64,000 nt of DNA from a virus (IMGVR_UViG_3300027754_000035); one strand, 5' to 3'. Shown: positions 13,572 to 31,398, counted from the stretch's first letter. Notes: generated from the letters alone by a model not told the origin. Made by a program: numbers and translations.

Positions 13572-14606
13572 ATGATCAAATTAAATATTCTCCTAAATGA
13601 AGTATTGAGTGAAGGTGGAGCGGGTGGTCACATGGACCATCCTTTTGACTTTGCTAGCAATGGCAAACAACTTGTCAATGTATTTGTAAAAACAATTGAT
13701 ACATTGAAAAAGGGTACCGGAAGTGTAAAAATTGATGGTGTCAATGCCAGCATTCGTTTAGCCAATGGACAATTTGTAATGGATCGTGGTAGTGCTAAAC
13801 CGTTTGATGTGCAGGGTATGCGACCATCCGATTTGGCAAAACGGTTTGAACCTGGACATGGATTCATAAAGATTGGTAGTAAGGTTATCAACATTTTTGA
13901 CGATGCAATTCCAAGTACACAATCAGAACTGCAACAACTTGGTCTATTGAATAATCCAAATATTCTATTGAATGTGGAATATGTTGAGGGGCAGACAAAT
14001 GTTGTGGGATATGGAGACATTGGAAACTTTTTAGCAATTCACGGACTCAAAGAAATCAAACCAAAAACCTTTGGTAAAACTGGACAAGTAAAAAGTCGTG
14101 TGGCAGTGGAAATTTCTTATGATAAAGATGTGATGCAAAGTTACATCAATAAGTTGAATATTGTTGCCAAGAAATATGGTTTCAAAGTATTGGGTAGTGT
14201 TGGCACAACATTCAAATCGGAGCCTAGTTTGTCAAAACCACTGAATGAAAAGATTACACTGTATCCAGACGGTCAACCAGTAACAAAGAGTCTCAACGAT
14301 TGGTTGAAAGCTGTTAAGATCGAAACTCCACTAATTACCCGTGAGCAGTTTATTGCGGCCAGAAAGAGCAAAAATATTGGTAAAGATTTTGTTGGTCAAG
14401 ATATTAAAAAGATTATCAACGATACTGTTGTGTATATTGCCACAATCAAATTGGGTGATGAAATTTTGAAAAATGCCACCAGTGAGATTGGTGATTTAGA
14501 AAAACACGAAGGTATTGTGATTCGTGATCCGAGCATTTATAGTAAACCATATAAAATAACTGGTAGCTTCATTATTAATGGACTTCAGAGTGGTTTTAGC
14601 AAATAA
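13572..14606 (+). CDS. Conserved phage protein with ligase-like nucleotidyltransferase motifs
   Basis: EGGAGGHMDHPFD N-terminus; KIDG (KxDG), NVEY, EGIVIRD and KPYK motifs in the order of the covalent NTase superfamily. Confidence 0.5.
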   Translation: MIKLNILLNEVLSEGGAGGHMDHPFDFASNGKQLVNVFVKTIDTLKKGTGSVKIDGVNASIRLANGQFVMDRGSAKPFDVQGMRPSDLAKRFEPGHGFIKIGSKVINIFDDAIPSTQSELQQLGLLNNPNILLNVEYVEGQTNVVGYGDIGNFLAIHGLKEIKPKTFGKTGQVKSRVAVEISYDKDVMQSYINKLNIVAKKYGFKVLGSVGTTFKSEPSLSKPLNEKITLYPDGQPVTKSLNDWLKAVKIETPLITREQFIAARKSKNIGKDFVGQDIKKIINDTVVYIATIKLGDEILKNATSEIGDLEKHEGIVIRDPSIYSKPYKITGSFIINGLQSGFSK

Positions 14607-14627
14607 AACTGTTTTAGCAAATAAAAC
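14593..14627. repeat. Tandem 17-bp direct repeat; each unit is self-complementary
   Basis: GTTTTAGCAAATAAAAC at 14593-14609 and 14611-14627. Confidence 0.85.
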
Positions 14628-14644
14628 AAATACGTATTGGTGTT

Positions 14645-15289
14645 ATGAAAAGAGCGCAAAATAAAAGTAATCTCGAAATCATTAAAGACTATGTTGAGGG
14701 AAATAGACCATTTGTTCAAGTTGGTTATGATGTAAACCTGACAGACTCACAGCGTAGAGAAGGTGATCAGTGGGAAGATGGTCAAGGTAAGAAGTGGGTA
14801 ATGAAAGATGGACGCAGGCGACGAGTTCCAAAGGTTGCCAGATTTATCAATGAACAACGTTGTAAAGATTGTAATATGGATGTTCGTTGGGGCAATTATT
14901 TGGACGATCAAGTTTGGCCAAAAACACATTTTTGCTATGATTGTTTTATAAACAATGAAACTCGCATGAAACTTGATGGTACTTGGGAATATTTTGACAG
15001 GGCCCGAGATTTGCGCAATGAACGTAGTATTACAAGTGACTACAAAAAGAAATTTGATGAAACACTAAAGTGGTGTAATGACCACGAAAATAAGCCTCTG
15101 GAGTTTATCAACGAAGATGGTAGCATTGAAAAATGGGAGGGTGTTGGTAGTGATATTGAAAAAATCCGTGCGGATGTATCCAAAGATCTAGAGTTTATAA
15201 ATGCGAGATTGGCGGAAATAGACGGTATTATAGCGGATTGTGAGGCAAAATATGAGTCAGCAAAACTACAGAGATCTAATAAAGGCTGA
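14645..15289 (+). CDS. Hypothetical protein immediately upstream of terminase (small terminase candidate by position only)
   Basis: 214 aa, CKDC..CYDC motif, overlaps terL start. Confidence 0.5.
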   Translation: MKRAQNKSNLEIIKDYVEGNRPFVQVGYDVNLTDSQRREGDQWEDGQGKKWVMKDGRRRRVPKVARFINEQRCKDCNMDVRWGNYLDDQVWPKTHFCYDCFINNETRMKLDGTWEYFDRARDLRNERSITSDYKKKFDETLKWCNDHENKPLEFINEDGSIEKWEGVGSDIEKIRADVSKDLEFINARLAEIDGIIADCEAKYESAKLQRSNKG

Positions 15290-16856
15290 GTACAAGCGTT
15301 GCTTGGAAGATCCTGTATACTTCATGAAGAAGTATGTAAAAATTCAACATCCAATGCGTGGTACTGTTGGTTTTGATTTATATCCTTTCCAAGAAAAAGC
15401 ACTGGCTGATCTGGTGAAATTCGACCTCAACATTGTGTTGAAAAGTCGTCAAATGGGTATTTCTACTCTAACAGCAGCATACAGTGTGTGGCTGATGACA
15501 TTTTTTAGCGATAAGAATATTCTGATCATCAGTATCACTCAAGAGACTGCCAAAGAAATTGTTACCAAGGTTCGTTTTGCAAATGATAATCTTCCGGCTT
15601 GGCTAAAAGTTGCATGTGTGGAAGACAACCGTTTGAGTTTGCGTCTCAAGAATGGATCAGCAATCAAAGCAGTTTCAAGTGCTGGTACTGCTGGTCGTTC
15701 AGCAGCACTGTCGCTGTTGATCATAGACGAAGCAGCATTCATTGATAACATCGAAGAGATTTGGTTGTCCGCACAATATACGCTATCAACCGGTGGTCGT
15801 GCAATTGTTTTGTCAACCCCAAATGGTGTTGGTAACTTTTTTCATAAAACTTGGGTTGCGTCCGAGGCAGGTGAAAATGAATTCAATACCATTAATCTGC
15901 CGTGGCATTTACATCCAGAGCGTGATCAAGCATGGCGAGATAAACAAACAGAATTGTCTGGTATAAAAGGTGCCGCACAAGAATGTGATTGTTCATTTGC
16001 TACATCCGGTAATCAGGTTATTCATATGGACATTATTGAGTTTTATAACAAAACTCATGTGCGAGATCCTATTGAAAAGCGTGGCAGTGGTTTGGATATG
16101 TGGATCTGGGAACGTCCAGATTATTCCAAAAACTATATGGTTGTGGCAGACTGTGCTCGTGGTGATGGTGCTGACTATAGTACATTCCATGTATTGGATG
16201 TGGAATCATTGGAACAAGTAGCTGAGTACAAGGGGCAACTCAGTACCAAGGATTTTGGAAATTTGTTGGTGACTGTTGCGACCGAGTATAATAATGCTTT
16301 GTTGGTAATTGAAAACAACAACGTTGGTTGGGCATCACTGCAACAGGTTATTGATAGAAATTACGATAATCTTTTTTATAGTAGTTCCGATCTGAAGGTG
16401 GTTGATATTGAAAGAACATACTCAAATAAAATCAATGGTGCTGAGAAAAAAGCGGTGCCTGGATTTACCACCACCAATATAAATCGTCAGTTGATCATCA
16501 ATAAGATGGAAAGTTTTTTCCGTGAACGTCATATTGTGATTCATAGCTCACGTTTATATGAGGAACTAAGAGTATTCATTTGGAATGGTGCTAAAGCAGA
16601 GGCAATGAAGGGATACAATGACGATTTGGTATTGGCGTTGGGCATTGGCTTGTGGGTTCGAGACACGGCATTAAAGATACAAGCTGAACAAATTGCTCAT
16701 ACCAGAACTATGTTATCGGGTATCAGTAAAGTCAGCGGTACATCTATCGGTCCGACCAATTCAACCAAGGTCATACAGTCTCCACAAGAAACGTGGAAAT
16801 TTGATACTGGTGTCGCACACACAGGTAAAAAAGAATCATTAACTTGGTTGTTGTAA
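15252..16856 (+). CDS. terL: Terminase large subunit (T4 gp17-like)
   Basis: KSRQMGIST Walker A, LLIIDEAAF Walker B, STPNG, nuclease ADCARGDGADYS and GYNDDLV. Confidence 0.96.
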   Translation: MSQQNYRDLIKAEYKRCLEDPVYFMKKYVKIQHPMRGTVGFDLYPFQEKALADLVKFDLNIVLKSRQMGISTLTAAYSVWLMTFFSDKNILIISITQETAKEIVTKVRFANDNLPAWLKVACVEDNRLSLRLKNGSAIKAVSSAGTAGRSAALSLLIIDEAAFIDNIEEIWLSAQYTLSTGGRAIVLSTPNGVGNFFHKTWVASEAGENEFNTINLPWHLHPERDQAWRDKQTELSGIKGAAQECDCSFATSGNQVIHMDIIEFYNKTHVRDPIEKRGSGLDMWIWERPDYSKNYMVVADCARGDGADYSTFHVLDVESLEQVAEYKGQLSTKDFGNLLVTVATEYNNALLVIENNNVGWASLQQVIDRNYDNLFYSSSDLKVVDIERTYSNKINGAEKKAVPGFTTTNINRQLIINKMESFFRERHIVIHSSRLYEELRVFIWNGAKAEAMKGYNDDLVLALGIGLWVRDTALKIQAEQIAHTRTMLSGISKVSGTSIGPTNSTKVIQSPQETWKFDTGVAHTGKKESLTWLL

Positions 16857-16875
16857 TACTTATACATAAGAATCT

Positions 16876-18765
16876 ATGGATGAAAAATCATTTCAGGAGC
16901 TAAAGAACCGATCGCTATACGCCAGACTCAAACGTTTATTTAGTAACGATGTTATAGTTAGAAATGTTGGCGGCAAAAAGCTAAAGGTCATTGACACCGA
17001 TGAAATTTTTTACGCATCGGATCGCAACTCGTTGCGTGACCGTTTCAATCGACTTCGTTCAACATCGTATAATCAATATACAAGAGATTTTAATCTCAGT
17101 TATCAAAGCAGTCGTGTAGAACTATTTCGTGATTATGACACAATGGATATGGATCCAATTCTAGCCAGTGCATTGGACATTTATGCTGATGAATGTACCA
17201 CTAGAAATGAGATGGGAGATATAATCACAGTTCGTAGCAGCAACGACGATATCAAGAGCATATTAAACAATTTGTTCTATGACATCCTCAACATTGAATT
17301 CAACCTTTGGAGTTGGACTCGTAGTATGGTCAAGTATGGTGATTTTTATTTGAGAATGCACATCAGTCCAGAGTACGGTGTATACATGGTTGAACCACTC
17401 AGCAGTTATTATGTAACTCGTATTGAGAATGCGCATTTGACCAACAGAAATTTCGTTAAGTTCCAAGTCAATCTACCATACGGAAATAAGATCGAAGATC
17501 TTGAGAACTATCAAATGGCACACTTTCGTTTGTTGAACGATAGTAATTTTTTACCGTATGGGAAATCAATGTTGGAAGGTGCTCGGCGTGTTTGGAAACA
17601 GTTGAGTTTGATGGAAGACGCAATGTTGATCCATCGTATTATGAGAGCACCTGAAAAGCGTATTTTCAAGGTTGACATCGGTAACATTCCTCCAAATGAA
17701 GTTGATAACCACATGGAGCGGATTGTTACACAAATGAAGAAGACACCGTATTTGGATCAAGCAACGGGTGATTACAATTTGCGTTTCAATCTTCAAAACA
17801 TGGCGGAGGACTTTTTCTTGCCAGTTCGTGGCAGTGATAGTGGTACTGATATTAGTAATTTACCAGGTCTTGAGTGGACAGGTACAGACGACATCGAGTA
17901 TTTGCGCAACAAGATGATGGCTGCTCTCAAGATTCCCAAGGCATTCTTGGGATATGACGAAACTTTGAGCGGTAAAGCAACTTTGGCTGCGGAAGATATT
18001 CGATTTGCACGTACCATTGAGCGTGTGCAACGTATTATTGTTAGTGAATTGAATAAAATTGCGGTGGTACATTTGTATTCACAAGGATATAAAGACGAAT
18101 CTCTTGTAGATTTTAGTTTGGAACTGACCAACCCATCCACAATCTTTGAAAAGGAAAAGATTGATGTTTGGAAGAGCAAGGTTGAGGTCAGTAAGGACAT
18201 GCAAGAAAACAAACTATTCAGCAAAAAGTGGATTTATGAAAATGTGTTTGGTATGAGTGAACAGGATATGATTGTTCTTCAAAAACAACTTGTTGATGAT
18301 GCTAAGGGTAATTATCGCTTCAAGCAAATTGAAGAAGAGGGCAATGACCCTGCATTGCAATTCCTTAAGACCAAAGGTGATGAAAATGAAGGTGGTGCTG
18401 GAGAAGCTGGTGGAGAAGCTGGTGGAGAAGCTGGTGGAGAAGCTGGTGGTGAAGCTGGTGGTGAAGCTGGTGGTACGCCAGCAGGCGGTGCTGAACCTGC
18501 TCCTAAATTGACTGAAAAGAAGCGTGATCAGACTGGTAGAAAGAATGCTAGAAAGTATCCATTCGGTGAAGATCCTTTGGGTACTTTGGAATTAAATTCT
18601 AGCAACGATCTGAGTCCTACTCACAAGTATAAGAATAACTCACCCATATCTTTGGAATCTTTGGTATCGTTAGATACATTACTCATGGGTTCTGAGAAGA
18701 CTAAACAAGTACTAAGAGAAGGTAAAAGTGTATCGTTTATGGATGAAACAAATATTAAAGAGTAA
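16876..18765 (+). CDS. Portal protein (T4 gp20-like)
   Basis: IASALDIYADE, KYGDFY, GKSMLE, LMEDAMLIHRIMRAPEKRIFKVDIGN, EDFFLPVRG, ALKIPKAFL. Confidence 0.95.
   Translation: MDEKSFQELKNRSLYARLKRLFSNDVIVRNVGGKKLKVIDTDEIFYASDRNSLRDRFNRLRSTSYNQYTRDFNLSYQSSRVELFRDYDTMDMDPILASALDIYADECTTRNEMGDIITVRSSNDDIKSILNNLFYDILNIEFNLWSWTRSMVKYGDFYLRMHISPEYGVYMVEPLSSYYVTRIENAHLTNRNFVKFQVNLPYGNKIEDLENYQMAHFRLLNDSNFLPYGKSMLEGARRVWKQLSLMEDAMLIHRIMRAPEKRIFKVDIGNIPPNEVDNHMERIVTQMKKTPYLDQATGDYNLRFNLQNMAEDFFLPVRGSDSGTDISNLPGLEWTGTDDIEYLRNKMMAALKIPKAFLGYDETLSGKATLAAEDIRFARTIERVQRIIVSELNKIAVVHLYSQGYKDESLVDFSLELTNPSTIFEKEKIDVWKSKVEVSKDMQENKLFSKKWIYENVFGMSEQDMIVLQKQLVDDAKGNYRFKQIEEEGNDPALQFLKTKGDENEGGAGEAGGEAGGEAGGEAGGEAGGEAGGTPAGGAEPAPKLTEKKRDQTGRKNARKYPFGEDPLGTLELNSSNDLSPTHKYKNNSPISLESLVSLDTLLMGSEKTKQVLREGKSVSFMDETNIKE
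18403..18474 (+). repeat. 12-bp tandem repeat x6 (EAGG) in the portal C-terminal tail
   Basis: GAAGCTGGTGG(A/T) six times. Confidence 0.95.
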
Positions 18766-18819
18766 CACAATTCGTGAACATTTTGCAAAGTGAAACATAT
18801 TTATATTTAATGGAACTAT

Positions 18820-19686
18820 ATGCGTAAGAAAGCTAAACATTCTAAGTTTAAGAACAGTGGCGTATTATTTGAGCTACTCACACGCCAAATTACCGCCGAT
18901 ATCTTGGCTGGGCGAGACGAATCCTTTACGAAGAATTTGATGTTCAAGTACTTCAACGAAGGTACTGCTTTGGGCAAAGAATTTCAACTATACAACTTTT
19001 TGGTCAACCAGTCTTCTAAAAATACTGAGTCGGCTGATCGTATAATTGGTGTGGTTCTTCAAACACGCTCTAAGTTGAACGAGCGTGATCTAAATAGCCA
19101 AAAGTATAATTTGATCAAAGAGATTAAGGATAAATTTGATATCGATGAATTTTTGAAAAATAAAATTCCAAACTACAAATTGTATGCGAGTGTATACAAA
19201 CTGTTTGAGAGCCAAAGTTCCGACGAGGCAAATATTGGAGTTGAAGACGTTGTTGAGGCTAGAGAATTTGTAATTGAGAATTTAACAAAAGAGAAGAAAA
19301 CCGACTCTCAGGCATTGGATGTATATAGTTCACAACCGGCCGACGTTAAGTTGCTCGCATATAAGTTTTTGATTGAGAATTTTAACAAAAAATACTCAGC
19401 ACTGTTGCCTGCTCAAAAAACTTTGCTCAAGGAGTATATCACAAATGTGTCCAACACCAACAAGTTTACTGAATTTGTCAATGATGAATACAAGCGAGTT
19501 TCTGATGCTTTGAAGGAACGTTCCATTCTTGTCAAAAGCAACATCATCAAGATCAAGCTCAATGAAACTGTTACTCAACTTTCAAATAAGACAATAACCG
19601 GTGTTGTTAAAGAAAATCAATTGGGTAGCTTATTAAGCGCATACGAATTGATTGATGAGTTGAACAAATTAGCCAATGAAAACTAA
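18820..19686 (+). CDS. Conserved hypothetical head-cluster protein
   Basis: 288 aa, KHSKFKNSGVLFELLTRQI N-terminus; between portal and protease; TATTTATA at 18798. Confidence 0.65.
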   Translation: MRKKAKHSKFKNSGVLFELLTRQITADILAGRDESFTKNLMFKYFNEGTALGKEFQLYNFLVNQSSKNTESADRIIGVVLQTRSKLNERDLNSQKYNLIKEIKDKFDIDEFLKNKIPNYKLYASVYKLFESQSSDEANIGVEDVVEAREFVIENLTKEKKTDSQALDVYSSQPADVKLLAYKFLIENFNKKYSALLPAQKTLLKEYITNVSNTNKFTEFVNDEYKRVSDALKERSILVKSNIIKIKLNETVTQLSNKTITGVVKENQLGSLLSAYELIDELNKLANEN

Positions 19687-20821
19687 ACTAAACGAATCTG
19701 GTGATCCATTTAGAGATATTGTCAAGCAGTACGCTAAAATGTACCGTGACAGTGAACTTGCTCGTATTGACAAAGAACAATACTCAAAATGGCTACAAGT
19801 TCATGCCGATAAAATGAGCCCTGCGACCAGAGCATCTATTGAAAAAAAAGTACAATCGGCAATCAACGGTAAAAACGAAGCTTCGACAAGTAGTGGTGCT
19901 GGTCCAGTATCCACACCATTTGCATTTAGTCGCCGGGGACCTGGTAATGTAAAAGCAGCAACTCAGTTGGGTTTCAAGTTGGCAAAACCAGTTGCTCATT
20001 CCAAGGATTTATCGTTGGAGAATCAGATGTATAGCGAACCAGCATATATTACTCCAGCACAAAATATTGAACCAGTTGATACGTGGGCAGATGCTAATGG
20101 GTTGGTTCAACACGGAGATCCAGAGTTAGATCCCGGTCTTGCCGGCCATCGCCAAGGTGCGTTGCCAATGTCAGAAGCTGGGAAAAAGATTGATCAAGTA
20201 GCTAAAATGCTTGAGGGGTTGAGTGGTATTCGTTATCGCAGACGTTTTAATGAAGCAGATGCCGCCGCTCAAGCAACGGTGTCAGCACCAGCACCAGCAC
20301 CGACGGCACAACCAAAAACATCGGCGGCACCCAATGTACAAGTTCAAAGTTATAGTTTACAACCCGATTTTAGCGAGTTTGATACAAAGTTAAAGGATAG
20401 CACCGAGGCACTCAAAACCGGTCTTCAAAAGAAGATTCAAGATCAAATTTTGAACAAAAAAATTGTGGTTAGGGCAAGCAAGGGATATAAACAACCAGAG
20501 TCCGATTACACTCTCAATGTTACTGGTGTAAATATTGATTATTACTACGACCGTTATGTAATTATTATTGTTGGTCGTGAAGAGAGTAAGCAAAAAACAG
20601 CTAAATTCTTTATCAAGCCTGGATTCAAGCTTAAAATCTTGGGTTCTGCCGATGTAAAACCCAAAGACAGATATCAAATTGCCAAGTCTCAAGCATTGGT
20701 TGATCCCAACAAACAAGCTTCTGCAACACCTAGCAATACGGTGACCAGCAAGGAACCACCCGAGGTTTCTGCCGAGACAAAACCAGAAGATAAAGGTGGC
20801 ACACAACCGCCACCAGTATAA
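19676..20821 (+). CDS. Hypothetical head-cluster protein (possible processed internal protein)
   Basis: 381 aa, overlaps the upstream stop; several (L/N)xE segment junctions; Pro/Ala-rich linkers. Confidence 0.55.
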   Translation: MKTKLNESGDPFRDIVKQYAKMYRDSELARIDKEQYSKWLQVHADKMSPATRASIEKKVQSAINGKNEASTSSGAGPVSTPFAFSRRGPGNVKAATQLGFKLAKPVAHSKDLSLENQMYSEPAYITPAQNIEPVDTWADANGLVQHGDPELDPGLAGHRQGALPMSEAGKKIDQVAKMLEGLSGIRYRRRFNEADAAAQATVSAPAPAPTAQPKTSAAPNVQVQSYSLQPDFSEFDTKLKDSTEALKTGLQKKIQDQILNKKIVVRASKGYKQPESDYTLNVTGVNIDYYYDRYVIIIVGREESKQKTAKFFIKPGFKLKILGSADVKPKDRYQIAKSQALVDPNKQASATPSNTVTSKEPPEVSAETKPEDKGGTQPPPV

Positions 20822-20824
20822 ATT

Positions 20825-21436
20825 ATGAACACATTATTGATTGATGTATTACCGTTTGAGTTTAAGATTAAGAAGGCTTCGCTCACCGAAAGTTTGAGCG
20901 ATGGAAAGCTTCTTGTCACGGGCACATTACAACGTGCCGAAGCAAAGAATCAAAACGGTAGAATTTACCCAAAAGGAATTTTGGAACGTGAAGCAACAAA
21001 GTACATGGACAACTTTGTTAAACAACGACGTGCAATGGGTGAATTGGATCATCCAGAGAGCAGCGTCGTTAACCTCAAAAACGTTAGTCACAACATTGTT
21101 GATATGGGTTGGGACGGTGACGATCTTGTTGGTACTGTGGAAATTCTTCCTACTCCAAGTGGCAACATTCTCAAGGATCTGCTCAAGGCAGGTATTTTGT
21201 TGGGAATCAGTAGTCGTGGATTGGGTAGTGTCAAAAAAGACATGCGAGAAGGAGCCGATGTTGTACAAGACGACTTTGACTTGATTGCATTTGATTTTGT
21301 TAGTAATCCAAGTACTCAAGGAGCATTTATGTATCCTGCTGGTAAAATCACTGAAAGTGTAAATCAGTCCAGCACCATCATCAATCCTTACCAAAATATT
21401 GATAGAATTATTCGTGATATCATCTCCGAATTATAA
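20825..21436 (+). CDS. Prohead protease (T4 gp21-like)
   Basis: QRAEAKNQNGRIYP, GELDHP, GISSRGLGS, FDFVSNPST. Confidence 0.95.
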   Translation: MNTLLIDVLPFEFKIKKASLTESLSDGKLLVTGTLQRAEAKNQNGRIYPKGILEREATKYMDNFVKQRRAMGELDHPESSVVNLKNVSHNIVDMGWDGDDLVGTVEILPTPSGNILKDLLKAGILLGISSRGLGSVKKDMREGADVVQDDFDLIAFDFVSNPSTQGAFMYPAGKITESVNQSSTIINPYQNIDRIIRDIISEL

Positions 21437-21457
21437 TTTGAAACCTATTTATAGCAT

Positions 21458-21913
21458 ATGATCAAGCTAAAACACCTAGTAGAAAATTCAACCGAGACGG
21501 CATATGCTCCCTTGAGCAAGGAGGAAAAGATTAAGTTGCGTGAAACTATCAAGTCTTACAACGAATATCGTAAGAGCTTGAAGGCATCGGTTGTGTACGA
21601 GACCGCTAACAAGATTATGGAAGCTGTGAATCTTGCCGAGCGTTATGCCATCAAGGAATGTAATGAATGGATGGAAGCCAAGATGGTTGAGCGTGATATG
21701 AAGGATGTCAAGAAGATGGCTCAAAAGTTGTATGAAGAAGCACACAAAATCAAGAGTGTGGAGCAACAACTTGAAATGTTGTATGAAGAAATTGGTTTGA
21801 AATTGGAGCGTTATTTTGAAATTGCAGACCCTATTGAGGTTCAACAAGGTACTGCAACTCCTACTTCACAACCTGCTGCGCCAGCACCAATGAAGAGTGT
21901 GGAAAGTAAGTAA
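21458..21913 (+). CDS. Hypothetical helical protein with MIKLKHLVE N-terminal tag
   Basis: 151 aa; TATTTATA at 21446. Confidence 0.6.
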   Translation: MIKLKHLVENSTETAYAPLSKEEKIKLRETIKSYNEYRKSLKASVVYETANKIMEAVNLAERYAIKECNEWMEAKMVERDMKDVKKMAQKLYEEAHKIKSVEQQLEMLYEEIGLKLERYFEIADPIEVQQGTATPTSQPAAPAPMKSVESK

Positions 21914-23022: not shown

Positions 23023-24135
23023 ATGAGCGATCTATTGAAAGAAAGCATCGCAGACGCAAAGGCTGTTCGTGAAACAGCAATTGCCAATGCAAAAACCTTC
23101 CTTGAGGAAAACTTCGCAAAAAGCATGAAAGAGATGTTTGCGGAAAAGCTCAAGGAAGAATCAGAAGAAACCGCAGCAGCAGAAACTGAGGAAGGCAAGA
23201 TCGAAGAGAAGCTTGCAACCTCAAAGATTGGTGGCGAAAAGGGTAATGAAGCTTCAAAGCAACATCCTGTCAAGCCATCCACTTCTGCAAACAAAAACAC
23301 CGAACCATCTGGTAAGCAAGAATTTGATGCCACCATGGAAGAGGGAACCGAGATCACCAGTGAAGAATTGGATGAGATCCTCGCAGAGCTTGAAACCGAA
23401 GGCGCAGCCCAAGGTCAACAAGTTGTTGCTGAGGAAGAAGGTTGTGAAACCGACTCAACAGCACATCATGGTGGTTCTGACGATTCGGATGATTTGAATC
23501 TCGACGAATTGCTCGCAGAGTTGGACGAGGAAGGTCAAGCAGCACCAGTTGCTCCTGCCGCACTTGATCCAGCAATCGCAGCACAACCTCCAGTTGCTCC
23601 AGTTGCTCCAGTAGCACCTGTTGCTCCAGTAGCAGGTCAGATTCCATCACCATCAGAGGGTGAAGATTGTGATGACTGCGACACCGACATCAGTTCCGAA
23701 GAGATGGCGGAAGCACTTGTTGCCTTGAGTGAAGAAAATGAAGCATTGAAGGTACAAGTTGAAGAAGCAATGAACACCGTTAAGTACATGAAAGATGTGC
23801 TTGCGGAAACCAATTTGTTGAATGCTAAGTTGCTTTACACCAACAAGCTATTCAAGGGTAAGAATTTGACCGAAGCGCAAAAGCACAAGGTCATTAGCAC
23901 ATTTGACCTCACCAGAACACTGCGTGAGATCAAGTTGGCTTATACAGTTTTGGCCGAATCATTTAATGCCGGTGGATCAGTTGCCAAGAAAAAGACCAAT
24001 GCAACTGTCTCAACTATCACCGAAGGTTTGGCAAGCAAACCAGTATCATCAACAAAGCCTGCATCTACCATTGTAGAACCGCTGGCTGATCAGATGGCTT
24101 CAAGATTCCAACTGCTCGCAGGAATCACGAAGTAA
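23023..24135 (+). CDS. Prohead core/scaffold protein (T4 gp22-like)
   Basis: Acidic coiled coil, PVA repeats, ETNLLNAKLLY; directly upstream of MCP; SD-like AGGAAAGG. Confidence 0.8.
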   Translation: MSDLLKESIADAKAVRETAIANAKTFLEENFAKSMKEMFAEKLKEESEETAAAETEEGKIEEKLATSKIGGEKGNEASKQHPVKPSTSANKNTEPSGKQEFDATMEEGTEITSEELDEILAELETEGAAQGQQVVAEEEGCETDSTAHHGGSDDSDDLNLDELLAELDEEGQAAPVAPAALDPAIAAQPPVAPVAPVAPVAPVAGQIPSPSEGEDCDDCDTDISSEEMAEALVALSEENEALKVQVEEAMNTVKYMKDVLAETNLLNAKLLYTNKLFKGKNLTEAQKHKVISTFDLTRTLREIKLAYTVLAESFNAGGSVAKKKTNATVSTITEGLASKPVSSTKPASTIVEPLADQMASRFQLLAGITK

Positions 24136-24183
24136 AATTAGTTTGCGAGTAAGTAAACAAACCAAAAGATAGGAAACAATTAT

Positions 24184-25929
24184 ATGGATATTAAAGGTCT
24201 ATTGACTAACAATATGAATCCACAGGCTAAGCTGATGGCTGAAACCCGTGGTCTACAAGGCAAGTGGGAAAAGACAGGTCTGCTCGAAGGCACCAAGGGT
24301 GTTGAGAAGGCACACATGTCCATCCTCTTGGAAAATCAAGCAAAGCAATTGCTCGACGAAGCAACCACGACTGGTACTAGTACCAGTTCTGAACAATGGG
24401 CTGGCGTAGCTCTTCCATTGGTTCGCCGTGTGTTTGCGGAGATCGCTGCTAAGGAGTTCGTCAGTGTTCAACCAATGAACCTCCCAAGCGGTCTGATCTT
24501 CTATCTCGACTTCAAGTATGGTTCTGGTAACCACTTGGGTCACACCGCTGGCGAAAGCCTTTTTGGTGGTAACAATAAGAAGCTAGGTTCAACCGACGCA
24601 GCAGTGAATGGTTTGTACGGTCAAGGTCGCTATGCGTACTCTGAGCGTACCGTAACTAGCTCTGCATTCAGTGCTGGTTATGCAACCGTTACAACCGCAA
24701 GTTGGAACGATTTGCAATTCGATTCAGCGTTTAGCTCATCAGTCAATGGTGCCGGGAAAGTTGTTGGTACCTACAAGATCACATTCAACATCGACGACAA
24801 CACTCAATCAAACACCGCCGCCGCCACTGGTTACGCATGGAATGTTGATTTGAATGCTGTTCGTTCATTCCAGGCTTCATTGGCCAATACCGGATTGACC
24901 ATGTTGAATACATATGCAACCGCAACCAACACTGGTAGCATTGCAAATCCATACTACCAAATCAACTTGTTCACCACGCAGGCCGCTGGAGTCTTAGTGG
25001 CGTCACCAAGTACATTGCGCTTGAATTACACGCTTCAACCTACGGATAATCTTCGTGGTGACTTTGAAGCTGGTAAGACAGCCGGTGAAGGTTCTGGCAA
25101 CAGTTCCGCAACCGCAACACAATCAATTGATACCGACATTGGTATTCCTGAAGTCAACCTTGAGTTGAAGAGCGAACCAATCGTTGCTAAGACTCGTAAG
25201 TTGAAGGCAGTCTGGACACCAGAATTGGCACAAGACTTGAATGCATACCACTCAATCGATGCAGAAGCAGAATTGACTGCGTTGTTGAGCGAGTATGTGT
25301 CAATGGAAATCGACTTGGAAATCCTCGACATGTTAAACGAGTCTGTGACCGGTACAACAACCGAGGCATGGAGTGCTCAAATCGGTACCGAGTTCACCAA
25401 GAGTCTGAACAATCAAACTGATGTTGCTACGTTCACCCGTGTGACGAACGCATCAGCAAACCGTACCGCATACGTCAAGTCAACCTGGTTCCAAACCCTT
25501 GGTAACAAGATCCAAAAGGTCAGTAACAAGATTCACCAGTTGACATTGCGTGGTGGTGCTAACTTCTTGGTGTGCTCACCAGATGTTGCAACTATTCTGG
25601 AGTCAATCCCAGGGTACGTTGTCAGCACTGATGGTGACCAAGCTAAGTTCGCAATGGGTGTGAGTCGTGTTGGTAGCTTCGCAAGTCGCTTCCAAGTCTA
25701 CAAGAACCCATACATGACCGATAACGTCATTCTGCTTGGTTTCCGTGGAAGCAACTTCCTCGAAACCGGTGCTGTGTACGCTCCATACATCCCACTCATC
25801 CAGACCCCATTGGTCTATGATCCAGTGAACTTCACCCCACGTCGTGGTGTGATGACCCGCTACGCTAAGAAGGTAGTCCGTCCGGAGTTCTACGGTAAAG
25901 TCTTGATCGCCGATCTCGACACCGTATAA
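24184..25929 (+). CDS. Major capsid protein (T4 gp23-like)
   Basis: LVRRVF, VSVQPMNLPSGLIFYL, KTRKLKAVWTPELAQDL, EIDLEI, AVYAPYIPL, FTPRRGVMTRYA. Confidence 0.97.
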   Translation: MDIKGLLTNNMNPQAKLMAETRGLQGKWEKTGLLEGTKGVEKAHMSILLENQAKQLLDEATTTGTSTSSEQWAGVALPLVRRVFAEIAAKEFVSVQPMNLPSGLIFYLDFKYGSGNHLGHTAGESLFGGNNKKLGSTDAAVNGLYGQGRYAYSERTVTSSAFSAGYATVTTASWNDLQFDSAFSSSVNGAGKVVGTYKITFNIDDNTQSNTAAATGYAWNVDLNAVRSFQASLANTGLTMLNTYATATNTGSIANPYYQINLFTTQAAGVLVASPSTLRLNYTLQPTDNLRGDFEAGKTAGEGSGNSSATATQSIDTDIGIPEVNLELKSEPIVAKTRKLKAVWTPELAQDLNAYHSIDAEAELTALLSEYVSMEIDLEILDMLNESVTGTTTEAWSAQIGTEFTKSLNNQTDVATFTRVTNASANRTAYVKSTWFQTLGNKIQKVSNKIHQLTLRGGANFLVCSPDVATILESIPGYVVSTDGDQAKFAMGVSRVGSFASRFQVYKNPYMTDNVILLGFRGSNFLETGAVYAPYIPLIQTPLVYDPVNFTPRRGVMTRYAKKVVRPEFYGKVLIADLDTV

Positions 25930-25954
25930 TTTGGATTAGTCTAAATTAGACAAC

Positions 25955-25987
25955 AAACCCACCAGTCGAAAGGCTGGTGGGTTTTTT
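25955..25987. terminator. Bidirectional terminator between convergent MCP and mom-like genes
   Basis: AAACCCACCAGTC-gaaa-GGCTGGTGGGTTTTTT. Confidence 0.9.
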
Positions 25988-25990
25988 ATT

Positions 25991-26767
25991 TTAGAAGAAC
26001 GACGTTGAAGTTTCAACATTGTGTTCTGTAACAACTTCCTTGAATATGGTTCCTTTGATGTATGGCAACACTTTGTGTTTCAATGATTTCACAAGCTTTT
26101 TATTTTCAATCTTGCCACAAATGAACTTAACGTAACGATGTTTACCACTTTCACGTTTGCGCCAAAAGGTTTTGCCTATACGTTCTTTTAGTTTATCGAC
26201 GTTGTGTGTTTTCCATCGGCTATACACACTGCGACTGTGAATCCAGTTATAGTTTGGTGGGCCTTCAAGACTAACGCTGTAATTGGGCATCAATGCTATA
26301 TCAACGTAATTGTCACCTTGATACATAAACCCAGTGGCTTGGTAAATTGTACCACGATGTCCTTCTTCGCTATCGGCATACGTCAGAATACATTTGACTT
26401 TTGGATAATCCTTGTTGAGCAGCCGAAAGCTTTCGGCCAATGCATAACTTTCTATGTTTTTACCATACCCGTCAGCAATCCAAAGTCTGGTCAATTCAAA
26501 CACATGGTCATTGGTCAATAATTCACTGATGCTTTTACTTGCACAGCGACCCACTGCGTTACCATATACCAATACACCTATGAGTTTGTTGTTGAATCCA
26601 CCAAAGAATGTGCTTTCTATATAGTCTTTATAATATACACCATACGCCACTGTGCAACTTGTCCACTTGTGGCTATAATGATTTTTTTCAATCATTGTAC
26701 GTGCGACCGATTTGTTTATCGGTTGTAGATGTATCAACGAAGTATCACAATATTGTGCATCACTCAT
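25991..26767 (-). CDS. Mom-like DNA base-modifying GNAT enzyme
   Basis: IEKNHYSH, GVLVYG, FELTRLW, KNIESY, ILTYADSEEGHRGTIYQATGF match the motif pattern of the phage Mu Mom family. Confidence 0.8.
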   Translation of the reverse strand: MSDAQYCDTSLIHLQPINKSVARTMIEKNHYSHKWTSCTVAYGVYYKDYIESTFFGGFNNKLIGVLVYGNAVGRCASKSISELLTNDHVFELTRLWIADGYGKNIESYALAESFRLLNKDYPKVKCILTYADSEEGHRGTIYQATGFMYQGDNYVDIALMPNYSVSLEGPPNYNWIHSRSVYSRWKTHNVDKLKERIGKTFWRKRESGKHRYVKFICGKIENKKLVKSLKHKVLPYIKGTIFKEVVTEHNVETSTSFF

Positions 26768-26773
26768 ACCATT

Positions 26774-26801
26774 ATTGTATGGTGGTATTTAACAAAGTCA
26801 A
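26774..26801 (-). promoter_or_regulatory. sigma70-like promoter for the mom-like gene
   Basis: TTGACT-16 nt-TACAAT on the minus strand, 6 nt before ATG. Confidence 0.65.
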
Positions 26802-26805
26802 TTAT

Positions 26806-27756
26806 TTATTTCTTCCAACGCAACATCTTTTTGAGTTCTTTAATCAAATCCTTATCAGATTGATCTAGTTCTTTATCAAAATGTTGCAACAAATCATCGA
26901 TGGTAATTGATTTATCATCCTTGGCCATAGTCTGAATTTCTTCGATGTTGTCGATGAGTTTTGACAGTGTGGTTTTGTATTTTTCCAATTCTACAGACGG
27001 TGAAAACCCACTAAAGTTAAGTGATTTTGGAGCAACGCCTTTAATTATATTTACGACGATGGCACCAACAATATTGAATACCGAGAACACCGCAGCGGCG
27101 ATTGGGTTGGTAGCAGCAAGCAAGCGTAGTACCAAAAAGATTACTCCAAATATTAAAATACCAACAATACAGCTTGTTACAAATCGTTTGATACCATAAA
27201 ATACAGCACCCAACCCAAAATATTTGTTAACGTTATCGATGATCACTTTATTATCATCTGCGGATTCTGCTTGCTTTTTTGCGGTAGTGGCGAGTTCACC
27301 AATCTTCTTGTTTAGATTGACATCCAAATCATCACTCTTTTTTTGCACAGATAAAATTTCAGCATCTTTTTGTTGCAGCAGTTTAGTACCACGTTCACGT
27401 TCTTTTGCTATTTCACTGTTCAACAGATCCACCATTGATTTAATTTTTGCCAATTCATCTACCTTTGGCGAGCCAGCAATACTGATTACTCGTTGATTGA
27501 TTTCTTTGGCTGTGGTTACTTCGTGTGTAACGTTAGTTGCTGGGACTTTGCTCAAACTATAGTCTACACCCTGTGCCATTGTGGCAATTTCCGACATTTT
27601 TTTGTCAGAATTGTCCGCTATCTTATTTTTAGCGACCACAACAGCATCGGCTTTGCCTTGCATTGCCTTTTGATTGTCATTTTTATTGTCTGGAATTATG
27701 GTGCCACATCCGGCCAACATAACCATACAAATTAGGGTCGTAAACATCTTTTTCAT
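26806..27756 (-). CDS. Lipoprotein with coiled coil and C-proximal transmembrane hairpin (u-spanin-like)
   Basis: Lipobox MLAG-C at residue 17, ~165-aa coiled coil, hydrophobic segments TSCIVGILIFGVIFLVL and IAAAVFSVFNIVGAIVV. Confidence 0.55.
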   Translation of the reverse strand: MKKMFTTLICMVMLAGCGTIIPDNKNDNQKAMQGKADAVVVAKNKIADNSDKKMSEIATMAQGVDYSLSKVPATNVTHEVTTAKEINQRVISIAGSPKVDELAKIKSMVDLLNSEIAKERERGTKLLQQKDAEILSVQKKSDDLDVNLNKKIGELATTAKKQAESADDNKVIIDNVNKYFGLGAVFYGIKRFVTSCIVGILIFGVIFLVLRLLAATNPIAAAVFSVFNIVGAIVVNIIKGVAPKSLNFSGFSPSVELEKYKTTLSKLIDNIEEIQTMAKDDKSITIDDLLQHFDKELDQSDKDLIKELKKMLRWKK

Positions 27757-27763
27757 ATCACAA

Positions 27764-27800
27764 TATAAATATCACCTTTTTATACGCAAAAACTATTTAT
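27764..27800. promoter_or_regulatory. Divergent pair of TATTTAT(A) boxes
   Basis: Minus-strand box 27771-27764 (lipoprotein) and plus-strand box 27794-27800 (operon leading into the RNA-repair island). Confidence 0.65.
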
Positions 27801-27805
27801 GTAGT

Positions 27806-28408
27806 ATGATTAAATTCAATGACCTTATTGAGAACGACACGCTGTGCCCAATGAAGTTGGTACAAGATCCAATTGTCAGTTCTAATTTGAAATATCACAT
27901 CACAAACGGTATACCTTTATGTGAAAACATCTTTAGAACTTACAGTGAGTCTTACTTTGAGTTGCTAGAAGAAGTTCGCATACTATATATTAGCAACGGA
28001 ATCGAGTTATGTGACGTGGATGCCGAACTAGTGGAGAGTGACCTTGGTAAAAAGGAATTGTTTGAAGGGCGAGAAGTTTATTTGGATGCTCCAATTGAGG
28101 TAGAAGAAGATTTGATCATGGAATTGAAGCATAGAGGTCGCACTGTGCATTTGAATCGCCCATTTCGTACTCCTGGGCAATCTAAAAAATATGCAGTGTA
28201 TGTGAAATCAAAAACTGGCAAAGTGAAAAAGGTTACTTTCGGAGACCCAAATCTGAAAGTTAAAGGTAGTAGTGCAGCACGTCGCAAGAGTTTTGCTGCT
28301 CGGCACAAATGTAGTCAAAAGAAGGATCGCACAACCGCTGGTTATTGGAGTTGTAGAAGTCACAGAATCAAGAGCCTTGGAAACAAAGGCAAGGGACGTT
28401 ACTGGTAA
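27806..28408 (+). CDS. Conserved hypothetical protein with basic C-terminal domain
   Basis: MIKFNDLIEN start 5 nt after TATTTAT; KKYAVYV..KVTFGDP..RRKSFAARHKC..GYWSCR. Confidence 0.65.
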   Translation: MIKFNDLIENDTLCPMKLVQDPIVSSNLKYHITNGIPLCENIFRTYSESYFELLEEVRILYISNGIELCDVDAELVESDLGKKELFEGREVYLDAPIEVEEDLIMELKHRGRTVHLNRPFRTPGQSKKYAVYVKSKTGKVKKVTFGDPNLKVKGSSAARRKSFAARHKCSQKKDRTTAGYWSCRSHRIKSLGNKGKGRYW

Positions 28409-28427
28409 AATCAAATTATTTGACAAT

Positions 28428-28943
28428 ATGTTAATAAACGAAAATAGACATGTAGAAAAAGGGTGCTTAATGGCGTATGTTGATCCTACTTATGGACCCC
28501 GCATTGCGGCAACAGGCCAGCGCATTATTCCACCACAAAGCGTATATACCGATCCAGATGATCCCACATATGGATATGATACTGAGCCACATGTTACTTT
28601 GAAATATGGCTTTGAACCAGACTTGACAAGATCGGCTGTTGCTAGTATACTTAGTGATGTAAAGCCATTTATTTGTAGAATCAGAGCACTAAACCAGTTT
28701 CTGAATGAAAAGTATGATGTAGTTAAATTCGAAATAGAAAAACATCCTATATTGACAAAACTACGCAGTCGGTGCGACATGTATCCAAACACTGATAGTT
28801 ACCCAGACTACAATCCCCACATGACACTTGCGTATGTCAAAAAGGGAACATTTCCACATATTCGTGAAGGATTGAATATTGCCGTACCAATTACACGATT
28901 CAAATACAGCGGTCCTAATGGCAAATATTTTATTAACTTATGA
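28428..28943 (+). CDS. 2H phosphoesterase (Acb1/T4 gp57B-like or LigT-like)
   Basis: Two HxT motifs: EPHVTLKYG and DYNPHMTLAY. Confidence 0.8.
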   Translation: MLINENRHVEKGCLMAYVDPTYGPRIAATGQRIIPPQSVYTDPDDPTYGYDTEPHVTLKYGFEPDLTRSAVASILSDVKPFICRIRALNQFLNEKYDVVKFEIEKHPILTKLRSRCDMYPNTDSYPDYNPHMTLAYVKKGTFPHIREGLNIAVPITRFKYSGPNGKYFINL

Positions 28944-30382
28944 TTACTTTCAAAAATTTATTGGTGGAAGGTGCAAAAGAAAATGCTGCGTTGGACTACT
29001 TGCAAAAGCTGGTTCAGAGTGGTCCTTTCAAGGGGCGGGTATATCTGGCTGGCGGAGCGGTTCGTGATATGCAACTTGGTAAAGATCCAAAAGATCTTGA
29101 CGTGGTTGTAACTGGCGGACTTGATGCTGGTATGGAGTTTGCAAAATGGGCAACTCAAACCATGAATAACTATAGTAATGGTAGCAATCCAGTGTTATTT
29201 CCAACATATGGTACTGCCAAGTTTACTCTTAAAGGTATTAAGCACAACGGCTTTGATCTGAGCGATATTGATATCGAAGCTGTGGCAACTCGTAAAGAGA
29301 AGTACACAACGGGTAGTCGTAAACCAGAGGTCAGTGCAGGCGATCTGGAGGACGATGTACACCGCCGTGATTTCACGGTCAATAGTTTGCTCAAGGATTT
29401 GACCACTGGCGAAATTTTGGATTTGACCGGAAAAGGCAAAGAGGACATTCGTAGGGGTATTATTCAGACTCCTTTGAATCCCGATGTCATCTTCACAGAA
29501 GATCCATTGCGTATGCTGCGTGCTGTTCGCTTTACCATGAAATATGGTTGGGAATTACCAATGTTCATGATCAGAGCGTTGAAGCGCAATGCTGCTCAGT
29601 TGCAGAACATTAGTGCCGAGCGTACCCGTGATGAGCTTGATAAAATGCTTGTGACGGGTAGCCCAGACCGTGCAATCAAGTTGTTGCGAATCACTGGACT
29701 GTTGAATTACATCATTCCAGAGTTCAAGACTGCTTACAAAATGACGCAGAACGTACACCATAAACGAGATGTGTTTGGTCACACCTTGGATGTGATGAAA
29801 GGTACCGACCCAGTGTTGTTGCAGCGTTTGATGGCATTGTTTCACGATATTGGCAAGACAGTTACTCGTAGTGTTACTCCCACGGGCGTACATTTCTATG
29901 GACATGAAGATGTTGGTGCTGATATGACCCGAGACATCATGCGCCGGTTGAAGTACCCAAATGAGCTTATTGATGCTGTTGTGTCTGGTGTAGCTAACCA
30001 CATGAAACTAAAGCATGGTGGCGATGATGCTGTGAAATTGAGTGACAAGACGTTGCGTAAGTTTAAGATTGCGTTGGGAGACAAGCTTGAAGACGTGTTG
30101 AATGTTATTCACGCTGACAACACGGCTCATAGCGAGGCAAGTAGTATGCCCAATCAGATTGTGAATGTTCGCAACCGATTGAAAGGATTGGAGGCTTCAA
30201 CTCCCAGCGAACCAAAACTACCCATCACTGGAAAAGATTTGATTGATATGGGCGTCAAACCGGGTCCAATTTTTAGCAAAATTCTTGCTGCTGTTACTGA
30301 AAAATGGTATGAGAATCCCAATATAACAACACAACAGGCTTTGCATATTGCCAAGTCTATTGTAAACTCACAACCAAAATGA
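28940..30382 (+). CDS. cca: tRNA nucleotidyltransferase (CCA-adding enzyme, class II) with HD domain
   Basis: GGAVRD..DLD, RKEKY..SRKP loop, RRDFTVN, EDPLRMLRAVRF, ISAERTRDEL, HD domain GHT..HDIGK..HEDVGA. Confidence 0.9.
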   Translation: MITFKNLLVEGAKENAALDYLQKLVQSGPFKGRVYLAGGAVRDMQLGKDPKDLDVVVTGGLDAGMEFAKWATQTMNNYSNGSNPVLFPTYGTAKFTLKGIKHNGFDLSDIDIEAVATRKEKYTTGSRKPEVSAGDLEDDVHRRDFTVNSLLKDLTTGEILDLTGKGKEDIRRGIIQTPLNPDVIFTEDPLRMLRAVRFTMKYGWELPMFMIRALKRNAAQLQNISAERTRDELDKMLVTGSPDRAIKLLRITGLLNYIIPEFKTAYKMTQNVHHKRDVFGHTLDVMKGTDPVLLQRLMALFHDIGKTVTRSVTPTGVHFYGHEDVGADMTRDIMRRLKYPNELIDAVVSGVANHMKLKHGGDDAVKLSDKTLRKFKIALGDKLEDVLNVIHADNTAHSEASSMPNQIVNVRNRLKGLEASTPSEPKLPITGKDLIDMGVKPGPIFSKILAAVTEKWYENPNITTQQALHIAKSIVNSQPK

Positions 30383-31398
30383 TTAAACTTACAGACATAC
30401 TACAACAAAGTGTGATCAAACTCACCGAAGGTGGTAAGCTTTTTGGTAGTAGAGCACAACGTGTGGCTACTGCTGAAATGAATGCTATTTTTGATGAGCT
30501 TAAAAAACGACTGGGTAGTCGGTTTGAAAAGTTTCAGTTGAGCAAAGCTTTGCCATCCAAGGCAGACCATGGTGATATTGATATTGTCATTAGTGGCAAC
30601 TCTGATGTCAAGAAAGCGTTGTTTACTTACTTGGGGCCATTGATCAAAGACTATAGTAAGAATGGCGATATCTATAGTGTGTTGTATAGCAGCGAAACTG
30701 GCAAGACTGTTCATGTAGACTTTTTGTATGCTTCTGCTGATGACTATGATGCTCAATATGACTATTTGAGCTACAACGACTTCAGTGGTATTCTGGGTGT
30801 GTTTGCTCGCAGATTGCGTTTCAAGTATGGAACTGATGGTTTCTTCAAAATCTATGAAGACAAGCGGGGACAATATCATTATATTCTGTTGACCAAGAAT
30901 CTGCGTGACGGACTCAAAATGTTGGGCTATGCACCAATTCTATCAAAGTTTGATGACATCAAAACACTCGACGACATTGTTGAATTTATTAGCTACACCG
31001 ATTTATTTGATAGCTCATATTTTGAAGGTGTGGGTCATAACAACAGTGATCGCAAGCGTATGCGAGCAGGCCGTCCTAGTGCTCAAGAACTCAAAGCCAA
31101 GCTGATTGCGTTGAACAAACGCAGAACTCAACCAGACGACGAACATTACGTCAAAACACTGTTTCCAGACAAGTATGCTGACTTGGTAAAGAAACAAGCC
31201 GAGATTGAAGCTTTTGCTCCTGTGAAGGGCAAATATGGTGGCGATTGGATTCTACAAAACTTTCCACAAATCAAACCTGGCCCAGCTCTTGGAAAAATCA
31301 AGTTGTTTTGGACTCAGAAATATGGTGATAAACTCGATAATGTTTCTGATGATGAACTCCGTAACGTGACCGCTGAGTTTTTGAAAACACTAAAATGA
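30379..31398 (+). CDS. Pol-beta superfamily nucleotidyltransferase of unknown specificity
   Basis: KADHGDIDIV (DxD), VHVDF third Asp; C-terminal IKPGPALGKI helix like the tail of the adjacent CCA enzyme. Confidence 0.6.
   Translation: MIKLTDILQQSVIKLTEGGKLFGSRAQRVATAEMNAIFDELKKRLGSRFEKFQLSKALPSKADHGDIDIVISGNSDVKKALFTYLGPLIKDYSKNGDIYSVLYSSETGKTVHVDFLYASADDYDAQYDYLSYNDFSGILGVFARRLRFKYGTDGFFKIYEDKRGQYHYILLTKNLRDGLKMLGYAPILSKFDDIKTLDDIVEFISYTDLFDSSYFEGVGHNNSDRKRMRAGRPSAQELKAKLIALNKRRTQPDDEHYVKTLFPDKYADLVKKQAEIEAFAPVKGKYGGDWILQNFPQIKPGPALGKIKLFWTQKYGDKLDNVSDDELRNVTAEFLKTLK

Follow-up and report, generated by a model that had tools for sequence, protein, structure and literature searches.

Five proteins encoded in a 64,000-nucleotide stretch of DNA (IMGVR_UViG_3300027754_000035) begin with the same short peptide, M-I-(K/T)-(L/F)-x-x-(L/I)-(L/I/V)-(x)-E, which we refer to as the tag. 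The stretch, called the window throughout, comes from a giant freshwater phage that has not been cultured and whose head is of the T4 type. An RNA-ligase-like protein, a CCA-adding enzyme and a Pol-beta-type nucleotidyltransferase are among the tagged proteins, and the five belong to different folds or families. We consider the tag likely to be a phage T4-type capsid targeting sequence (CTS) joined to a cleavage site for the prohead protease. By analogy with T4, the tagged proteins are probably injected into the host together with the DNA.

A preliminary description of the window had listed the five N-termini, and re-translation found each of them in place:

13572, forward strand: tag MIKLNILLNE, on the ligase-like protein
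21458-21484, forward strand: tag MIKLKHLVE, on a 151-aa Glu-rich protein
27806-27832, forward strand: tag MIKFNDLIE, on a 200-aa basic protein
28940-28969, forward strand: tag MITFKNLLVE, on the CCA enzyme
30379-30429, forward strand: tag MIKLTDILQQSVIKLTE, 17 aa, on the Pol-beta-type nucleotidyltransferase

In the order of the five genes, the tags end in LNE, LVE, LIE, LVE and LTE. The same description had put forward a weaker sixth copy at 52199 (MKFESIIND). This start is in the wrong register, lacks a match at residue 2 and carries a terminal D instead of E; it fits none of the versions of the motif and was not counted.

A strict regular expression for the tag matched four of the 54 called N-termini and none of 20,509 internal positions, with approximately 0.003 matches expected by composition; as the strict motif was drawn up after the matches had been seen, its P value is inflated. 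At the DNA level, a degenerate pattern of the tag gave four matches in the window versus 0.10 expected, a count that 0 of 100 shuffles attained. When applied to five related IMG/VR records, this pattern was found 19 times in the forward and once in the reverse orientation, and a reversed control pattern gave no match. The conserved residues of the tag use different codons from copy to copy, which indicates that selection acts on the peptide. Amongst related phages, the tag is carried by at least 14 unrelated families.

Likeness to the T4 leader and the prohead protease

In T4, the CTS of IPI, IPII and IPIII, which are internal proteins, and the propeptides of Alt and gp24, are cut off by the prohead protease gp21 (Mullaney and Black 1996; reviews: PMC9026906, PMC3012670). 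The internal proteins are a diverse set with the CTS as their sole shared part (PMC3012670). The first 10 residues of IPIII are enough for packaging, with residues 4 and 7 mainly governing targeting and residues 8 and 10 governing processing, and T4 propeptides vary from 7 residues (Alt) up to 65 (gp23) (PMC9026906). The fixed positions of the window tag, 4 (L/F), 7 (L/I), 8 (L/I/V) and 10 or 9 (E), are those that decide the targeting and processing of IPIII. In all five copies and their orthologues, position 4 is L/F and position 7 is L/I. In the T4 record, IPII and IPIII begin MKTYQEFIAE, whilst IPI begins MKTFKEF and its leader ends in ITE.

Intermediate leaders were identified on a contig with a T4-like context (UvsY, gp46/47-like, SegE and PhoH), L024 in our working labels (L and P numbers denote other sequences used here). 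Seven genes of L024 begin MKTFKEF, MITFKQY, MRSFKEF or MNTFKEY, including a member of the ligase family that starts MITFKQYLLNE/GGAAGHM (the slash marks the junction after Glu). Judged by their residues, the L024 leaders bridge the T4 CTS and the window tag; the CCA enzyme of the window begins MITFKNLLVE. A cytidylyltransferase-like (HxGH) enzyme on the same contig (L024:12559-13170) has a leader without Glu, MKTFKEFVDS, and its homologue in the window (40026-40823) begins at the domain and has no leader.

The preliminary description had named a gp21-like protease, and the gene is real. It lies amongst the following head-module and tagged genes:

19676-20821, forward strand: head-module protein, 381 aa, in the portal-protease interval, starting MKTKLNE, a short L-x-E leader
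20825-21436, forward strand: gp21-type prohead core serine protease (Pfam Peptidase_S77, E 7.3e-31)
21458-21913, forward strand: tagged Glu-rich helical protein, 151 aa, adjoining the protease, with 7 more (L/I)-x-E sites
23023-24135, forward strand: candidate scaffolding protein, 370 aa, acidic, starting MSDLLKE, with 16 (L/I)-x-E sites, upstream of the capsid gene
24184-25929, forward strand: gp23-type major capsid protein (phrog_138, E 2e-69)
24184-24360, forward strand: capsid propeptide, from the alignment with T4 gp23
27806-28408, forward strand: tagged 200-aa protein with a very basic C-terminal domain (phrog_7595)

In the alignment, L-D-E59/A of the capsid protein falls on the gp23 maturation site L-T-E65/A, and L-R-E10/S of T4 gp24 occupies the same column. 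We infer from this correspondence that the S77 protease shares the (L/I)-x-E specificity on head proteins, and it is presumed to be the enzyme that removes the tags. The 151-aa protein, whose orthologues in L001 and L003 retain the tag, is probably a prohead core or internal protein. Synteny with T4 gene 22, together with position and composition, makes 23023-24135 the candidate scaffold gene; neither its product nor the 381-aa protein matched a family in Pfam or PHROGs. The tag is also present on homologues of the 27806 basic protein (L005:3275-4090 and L018:2160-2603).

Tagged enzymes and their families

The protein identities proposed in the preliminary description (CCA enzyme, Pol-beta-type nucleotidyltransferase, RNA-ligase-like protein and 2H phosphoesterase) were all upheld by Pfam matches, motifs and folds. 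The enzyme genes are as follows:

13572-13613, forward strand: ligase-like tag MIKLNILLNE-VLSE, with (L)-x-E sites at E10 and E14, followed by a conserved GGAGGHM
13614-14606, forward strand: ligase-like body, a covalent nucleotidyltransferase (KxDG motif I with K53, EG motif IV, motif V with K328)
28428-28943, forward strand: 2H phosphoesterase (HVT 55, HMT 131; Pfam 2_5_RNA_ligase2, E 1.6e-11)
28940-30382, forward strand: tagged CCA-adding enzyme with HD domain (GGAVRD 38-43, DLD 52-54, HD 302)
30379-31398, forward strand: tagged Pol-beta-type nucleotidyltransferase (HGDIDIV motif), its ATG overlapping the CCA stop codon

By sequence, the ligase-like protein had no match in PDB, Pfam or PHROGs, and none by tblastn against 50,697 phage records. 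Residues K53, D55, G56, E313, G314 and K328 are invariant in 41 aligned sequences. In the AF2 model, which has a pLDDT of 92 with residues 1-14 below 50, the top structural matches are RNA ligases (T4 Rnl1, Z 9.2; a Naegleria ligase, Z 8; Trl1; Rnl2), and the Foldseek E value is modest (5e-3). The 13572 protein is thus identified, from its motifs and predicted fold, as an RNA-ligase-like covalent nucleotidyltransferase. A protein-atlas pointer to DUF6267 was set aside and the name is not used here, since no aligned family member matches that Pfam family.

The ligase family provides the most detailed view of the leader junction. A search of 1.84 billion cluster representatives returned 362 matches, of which the best 150 were analysed. 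The G-rich N-terminal motif was present in 125 of these 150 representatives. In 100 of the 125, at least five residues precede the motif, and in this group P1 is E in 92/100, P3 is L/I/V in 97/100 and P4 is L/I/V in 84/100, with P2 variable. Fifty of the 100 are N-terminal leaders of 5-34 residues, and the rest lie at internal junctions of proteins that are 420-1280 aa long. The remaining 25 of the 125 open directly at (M)GGAAGHM. Tag-less forms exist, yet the Glu is near-constant when anything precedes the motif, and we conclude that the Glu is dispensable for the ligase-like enzyme itself. In other phages, the ligase domain is fused to cytidylyltransferase-like, GNAT and Tad3 (Thoeris inhibitor) partners. 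Four such proteins (P0314, P0257, P0250 and P0256) have (L/I)(L/I/V)-x-E-G at every junction to the Tad3, GNAT and cytidylyltransferase-like domains.

The CCA protein matched Pfam families PolyA_pol (8e-21), PolyA_pol_RNAbd (4e-16), HD (6e-9) and tRNA_NucTran2_2, as well as phrog_2244 (E 6e-58). With head, neck and HD all present, its sequence is that of a complete class II CCA-adding enzyme of the HD-containing kind. The pattern M-I-x-(L/F/M)-x-x-L-(L/V)-x-E-G is retained in orthologues that are 64-99% identical, and it is the x positions that vary. In L010 (8270-11386), a single 1039-aa ORF joins NUDIX and cell-wall hydrolase (Hydrolase_2) domains and a part of approximately 250 aa to a C-terminal CCA/HD part, and K-L-L-M-E stands at the junction to the CCA part. 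A further CCA homologue, in LR756501, is preceded by M-L-N-E at the end of a very long ORF. The upstream modules of this ORF (L020; reverse complement of LR756501.1 151887-159284, from a 735-kb uncultured phage) are parted by repeated linkers resembling DPYGEEDWE.

The 2H phosphoesterase presents a reduced form of the leader. The MLINE start of the gene and an in-frame K-IKLFDN upstream of its ATG (28407-28427) were both as the preliminary description had it, and the start lies at 28428 rather than 28429. Together, IKLFDN-MLINE looks like a full leader after loss of the start codon. On this sequence reading, the window protein keeps the cleavage half, M-L-I-N-E (the last five residues), and is without the targeting half. 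Close relatives start M(L/I)(L/I)xE, and distant ones have full leaders such as MIKLETMLTE and MIKLNDLMSE. Many members of the 2H family score for Acb1; the window gene scored 2.9e-4 against that family, below the family's cutoff. The 2H gene is missing in L001 and L002, which are 99% identical to the window in the adjoining CCA gene and retain the last ~20 codons. Its presence is, by sequence comparison, an insertion/deletion polymorphism within the tagged-gene cluster. A fusion of the 2H protein to the product of the 27806 gene via a frameshift at TGG-TAA-A found no support and was dropped.

In the alignment of nucleotidyltransferase homologues, G65, D66, D68 and D114 are invariant. The AF2 model of the window protein has a pLDDT of 89, with residues 1-18 below 50, and Foldseek matched it to Pol beta/lambda/mu (E 1e-6, probability 1.0). 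On the strength of this model, the 30379 protein belongs to the Pol-beta superfamily. Across 120 homologues, leaders have 10, 14 or 17 residues, for example MIKLMDLLVE, MIKLKDIVTEIINE and MIKLTDILKESASKLKE, and the (L/I/V)-x-E abuts an invariant GGKLFG in all that bear a leader. The leader of the window protein is doubled: its first Glu is now Gln, and the second site is left.

Tagged genes are also clustered in related phages. L005 has four in a row upstream of the CCA gene, and L006 and L007 each have five in a row, the last being the CCA gene. Amongst relatives more widely, the tagged enzymes include a NUDIX hydrolase, a phosphoribosyltransferase and an ART-PolyVal ADP-ribosyltransferase (E 1e-27); the tag likewise heads an HExxH protein, small proteins that are Cys-rich or basic, and homologues of the 27806 basic protein. 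The ip loci of T-even phages are variable, and their products are first-response anti-defence proteins (bioRxiv 10.1101/2022.04.14.488369). By analogy, the ART-PolyVal enzyme recalls T4 Alt, and the layout of the tagged clusters is like that of the variable ip loci. The one cultured carrier of the tag that was found is Microcystis phage Mel-JY01 (PP395634), which has four MIKLKSLLQE-type starts (60276-62762), one of them heading an 18-codon ORF that stops early. Its gene at 60276 begins MIKLKSLLQE and that at 62056 MIKLMSLVTE, and IISDRVWH is a predicted mature end in this phage.

Proposed mechanism and alternative explanations

The preliminary description had placed the enzymes behind late-type boxes. 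A TATTTAT box does precede the ligase-like gene; 28940 has a degenerate version, and 30379, coupled to the CCA stop codon, has no box. The boxes of the tagged genes are:

13560-13566, forward strand: TATTTAT box, 5 nt before the 13572 ATG
21446-21452 and 27794-27800, forward strand: TATTTAT boxes, 5 nt before the ATGs of 21458 and 27806

Numerous structural genes likewise follow such a box, amongst them the sheath, an adaptor-like gene and tail-module genes, a pattern which fits co-expression of tagged and virion genes from a putative promoter. Should TATTTAT serve as a late promoter, its transcripts would have little or no leader. On the forward strand, further TATTTAT(A) boxes (at 32542, 37273, 38175, 40014, 44539 and 52187, amongst others) keep a fixed spacing of 5 nt to the start codons of numerous genes without a Shine-Dalgarno sequence. 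In the protease and candidate scaffold genes, the element is TATAAAT instead, 1-2 nt away from the start codon. In T4 itself, the ip genes also have early promoters.

We propose the following sequence of events. The tagged proteins would be made alongside the head proteins. Their first ~10 residues would form a short amphipathic helix (M1, I2, L/F4, L/I7, L/I/V8) that docks on the prohead scaffolding core, as in T4. Once the shell has closed, the S77 protease would cut after the Glu of (L/I/V)-x-E, the scaffold would be degraded and the capsid protein trimmed. To judge from conservation, the N-termini set free would be GGAGGHM (ligase-like protein), GGKLFG (nucleotidyltransferase) and GAKEN (CCA enzyme). 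By analogy with IPI-III and Alt of T4, the enzymes would then be retained in the head once it is full of DNA and would pass into the cell along with the genome. We speculate that they would act ahead of any phage gene expression, either in tRNA repair or maturation or in blunting first-response defences. The cleavage step is proposed because the junction is conserved, and docking, retention and delivery are proposed by analogy with T4.

This model leads us to suggest, tentatively and with rather less confidence than we have in the nature of the tag, that freshwater T4-type giant phages deliver from the capsid a pre-made kit for tRNA repair or maturation, consisting of a CCA/HD enzyme, an Rnl-like ligase and a Pol-beta-like nucleotidyltransferase. 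In relatives, the load would extend to 2H/Acb1-like, NUDIX, ADP-ribosyltransferase and phosphoribosyltransferase proteins, and abortive infection that works by tRNA cleavage or signalling would be countered at time zero.

Where sequence could speak, it agreed with the original proposal of a capsid-targeting leader cleaved by a gp21-type protease. The T4 CTS positions, the S77 protease, the capsid L-x-E, the invariant mature N-termini after Glu, the tag-less and fused forms, the tag on ART-PolyVal and the fusion of CCA and hydrolase domains are all in line with it. Several points weigh on the other side. Packaging, cleavage and injection all rest on analogy, and late timing is suggested by the putative TATTTAT promoters. 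The nucleotidyltransferase homologue of L004 begins without a tag, so the tag is not obligatory for this enzyme. Flavobacterium phage immuto, the nearest cultured relative by capsid protein, has two starts of the window type versus one control match; this near-control level implies that a large tagged set is lineage-specific. The window-type DNA pattern was not found in T4 or LR756508, and in LR756501 it was not above control. T4, LR756508, LR756501 and immuto have either other leader words or few tags. Finally, the Glu and the preceding hydrophobic residues could in principle be part of the enzyme folds, a possibility made less probable by the low pLDDT of the leaders and by the 25 ligase-like representatives that have no tag. 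Two small immuto proteins (NC_055915.1 25061-25456 and 111675-112139) share R-M-Q-x-L-A-G-I-I-T-E approximately 12-22 residues from the N-terminus, which may be a second, longer type of leader with an I-x-E end.

Three other explanations each cover part of the data, and none covers the full combination. The first is that the tag is a propeptide removed by a protease and has no role in capsid targeting, for example because the enzymes are inactive until trimmed in the cytoplasm, or because it marks the domain borders of a polyprotein. The best-conserved part of the tag is indeed (L/I/V)(L/I/V)-x-E, which is also found at internal fusion junctions, and the 2H family mostly retains just M(L/I)(L/I)xE. 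However, conservation extends to positions 2-4 and 7, which are not required for cleavage and which agree with the IPIII targeting residues, and one tagged protein (21458) sits within the head-gene module. In T4, moreover, S77 proteases are assembled into proheads and activated inside them. We therefore regard a purely proteolytic role as improbable.

We judge it comparably doubtful that the tag is an amphipathic N-terminal helix serving another localization or interaction (with a membrane, an assembly factory or a chaperone) and leading to neither packaging nor injection. Such a signal would agree with the AF2 prediction of a short free helix with one hydrophobic face, and T4 proheads form on the inner membrane (PMC9026906), so that a signal for the assembly site would look alike. 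It leaves unexplained the near-invariant Glu exactly before the conserved mature N-termini, the tag-less MGGAAGHM forms and the leader words of T4 IPI.

Least probable is a constraint on the nucleotides themselves, either an AT-rich start that aids late mRNAs lacking a leader or Shine-Dalgarno sequence or the 5' end of a cassette for recombinational shuffling: ATG ATY AAR is AT-rich, TATTTAT lies 5 nt before many ATGs, such that the mRNAs may be near-leaderless, and the tagged genes do lie in variable clusters, with 2H missing in L001 and L002, but the Leu, Ile and Glu codons differ between copies, most genes behind the same box are without the tag, LLxE recurs within long ORFs, where no initiation occurs, and a role in recombination may coexist with targeting, as proposed for the T-even ip loci.

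Genomic setting and comparison with known systems

Other genes of the head and tail are encoded upstream of the protease:

7872-11864: tail sheath, 1330 aa
15240-16856: large terminase
16876-18765: portal

The length of the sheath is unusual, and its match to sheath families is confined to the final ~340 of the 1330 residues. A 503-aa HNH/homing-endonuclease-like gene (11966-13477) comes after it. Convergent with the major capsid gene is a Mom-family gene on the reverse strand (25991-26767; Pfam Mom, E 3.6e-43), which points to hypermodified adenine in the phage DNA. A reverse-strand gene (26806-27756) located between the Mom gene and that of the tagged basic protein has a lipoprotein-type signal (MKKMFTTLICMVMLAGC). 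The major capsid protein is approximately 50% identical to its counterparts in phages Mel-JY01 and immuto. Megablast of positions 13000-31500 against cultured phages gave no match, and the window has no near-identical cultured phage. The related IMG/VR contigs (29-78 kb) have CheckV completeness values of 9-31%.

The mechanism itself is already known from the T4 CTS. To our knowledge, dissection of a short capsid-targeting peptide has been confined to T4, where the known natural cargo consists of Alt and a few small inhibitors. New here are the cargo of RNA-end enzymes (340-480 aa), the breadth of the tagged families, the junction inside polyproteins and the predictable mature N-termini. In our literature search, no paper tied RNA ligases or CCA enzymes to a CTS, nor did any feature the leader word MKTFKEF. 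If our interpretation is true, distant T4-type phages load whole sets of enzymes into the head, including tRNA-end repair, and phage RNA repair and counter-defence begin at injection rather than after early transcription. It would also provide a readable code, M-I-K-L-x-x-L-L-x-E with a cut after E, by which the proteins that uncultured phages inject could be forecast from sequence, as well as a fresh supply of natural tags with which to load foreign proteins into phage heads. The predicted mature N-termini, exactly conserved as they are, are concrete peptides to seek in lake metaproteomes.

Of the known systems, the T4 CTS has several features in common with the window tag. Both are N-terminal leaders of 9-19 residues borne by proteins that are otherwise unrelated, both have a hydrophobic or aromatic residue at position 4 and again at position 7, both end in (L/I)-x-E, and in either case the genome encodes an S77 protease. 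The leaders differ in length (10 versus 17-19 aa), and the 17-residue leader of the window nucleotidyltransferase parallels the 19-residue leader of IPI. In relatives of the window phage an ADP-ribosyltransferase is tagged, as Alt is in T4, and MKTFKEF words are found in L024. In contrast, the window consensus is MIKLxxLLxE and that of T4 is MKTYQEFIAE; the cargo in the window is mostly RNA-end enzymes and that of T4 small basic proteins; and the window-type cleavage junction, known here from sequence, is also found within polyproteins.

A second parallel is provided by the ejection-protein propeptides of phiKZ, 201phi2-1 and SPN3US, where a gp21-related protease cuts at (S/A/G)-x-E or A-x-E (PMC5694885). 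These are likewise giant phages with a T4-related, Glu-cutting protease and many packaged enzymes, packaging being our inference for the window. There too, paralogues have conserved N-termini, to which targeting to the head is ascribed. Those propeptides are mostly >100 residues long with a small P3 residue, whereas the window leaders are of T4 length with L/I at P3.

The tagged repertoire also resembles the polyvalent proteins, which phages and conjugative elements inject (Iyer et al. 2017, cited in PMC7824862). ART-PolyVal, NUDIX, cell-wall hydrolase and GNAT domains are common to both, and some relatives of the window chain those domains with CCA or ligase domains. Unlike the polyvalent proteins, the window has separate genes, each with its own tag, and delivery would use the head interior.

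Finally, the RNA repair of jumbo phages unites RNA ligases, the RlaP nucleotidyltransferase, CCA enzymes and 2H enzymes (PMC7824862). The same enzyme classes as in that system and in T4 Pnk and Rnl1 are clustered in the window at 28428-31398, plus 13572. The enzymes of T4 and the jumbo phages are described as made after infection, whereas those of the window, with their packaging-type leader, would arrive pre-made.

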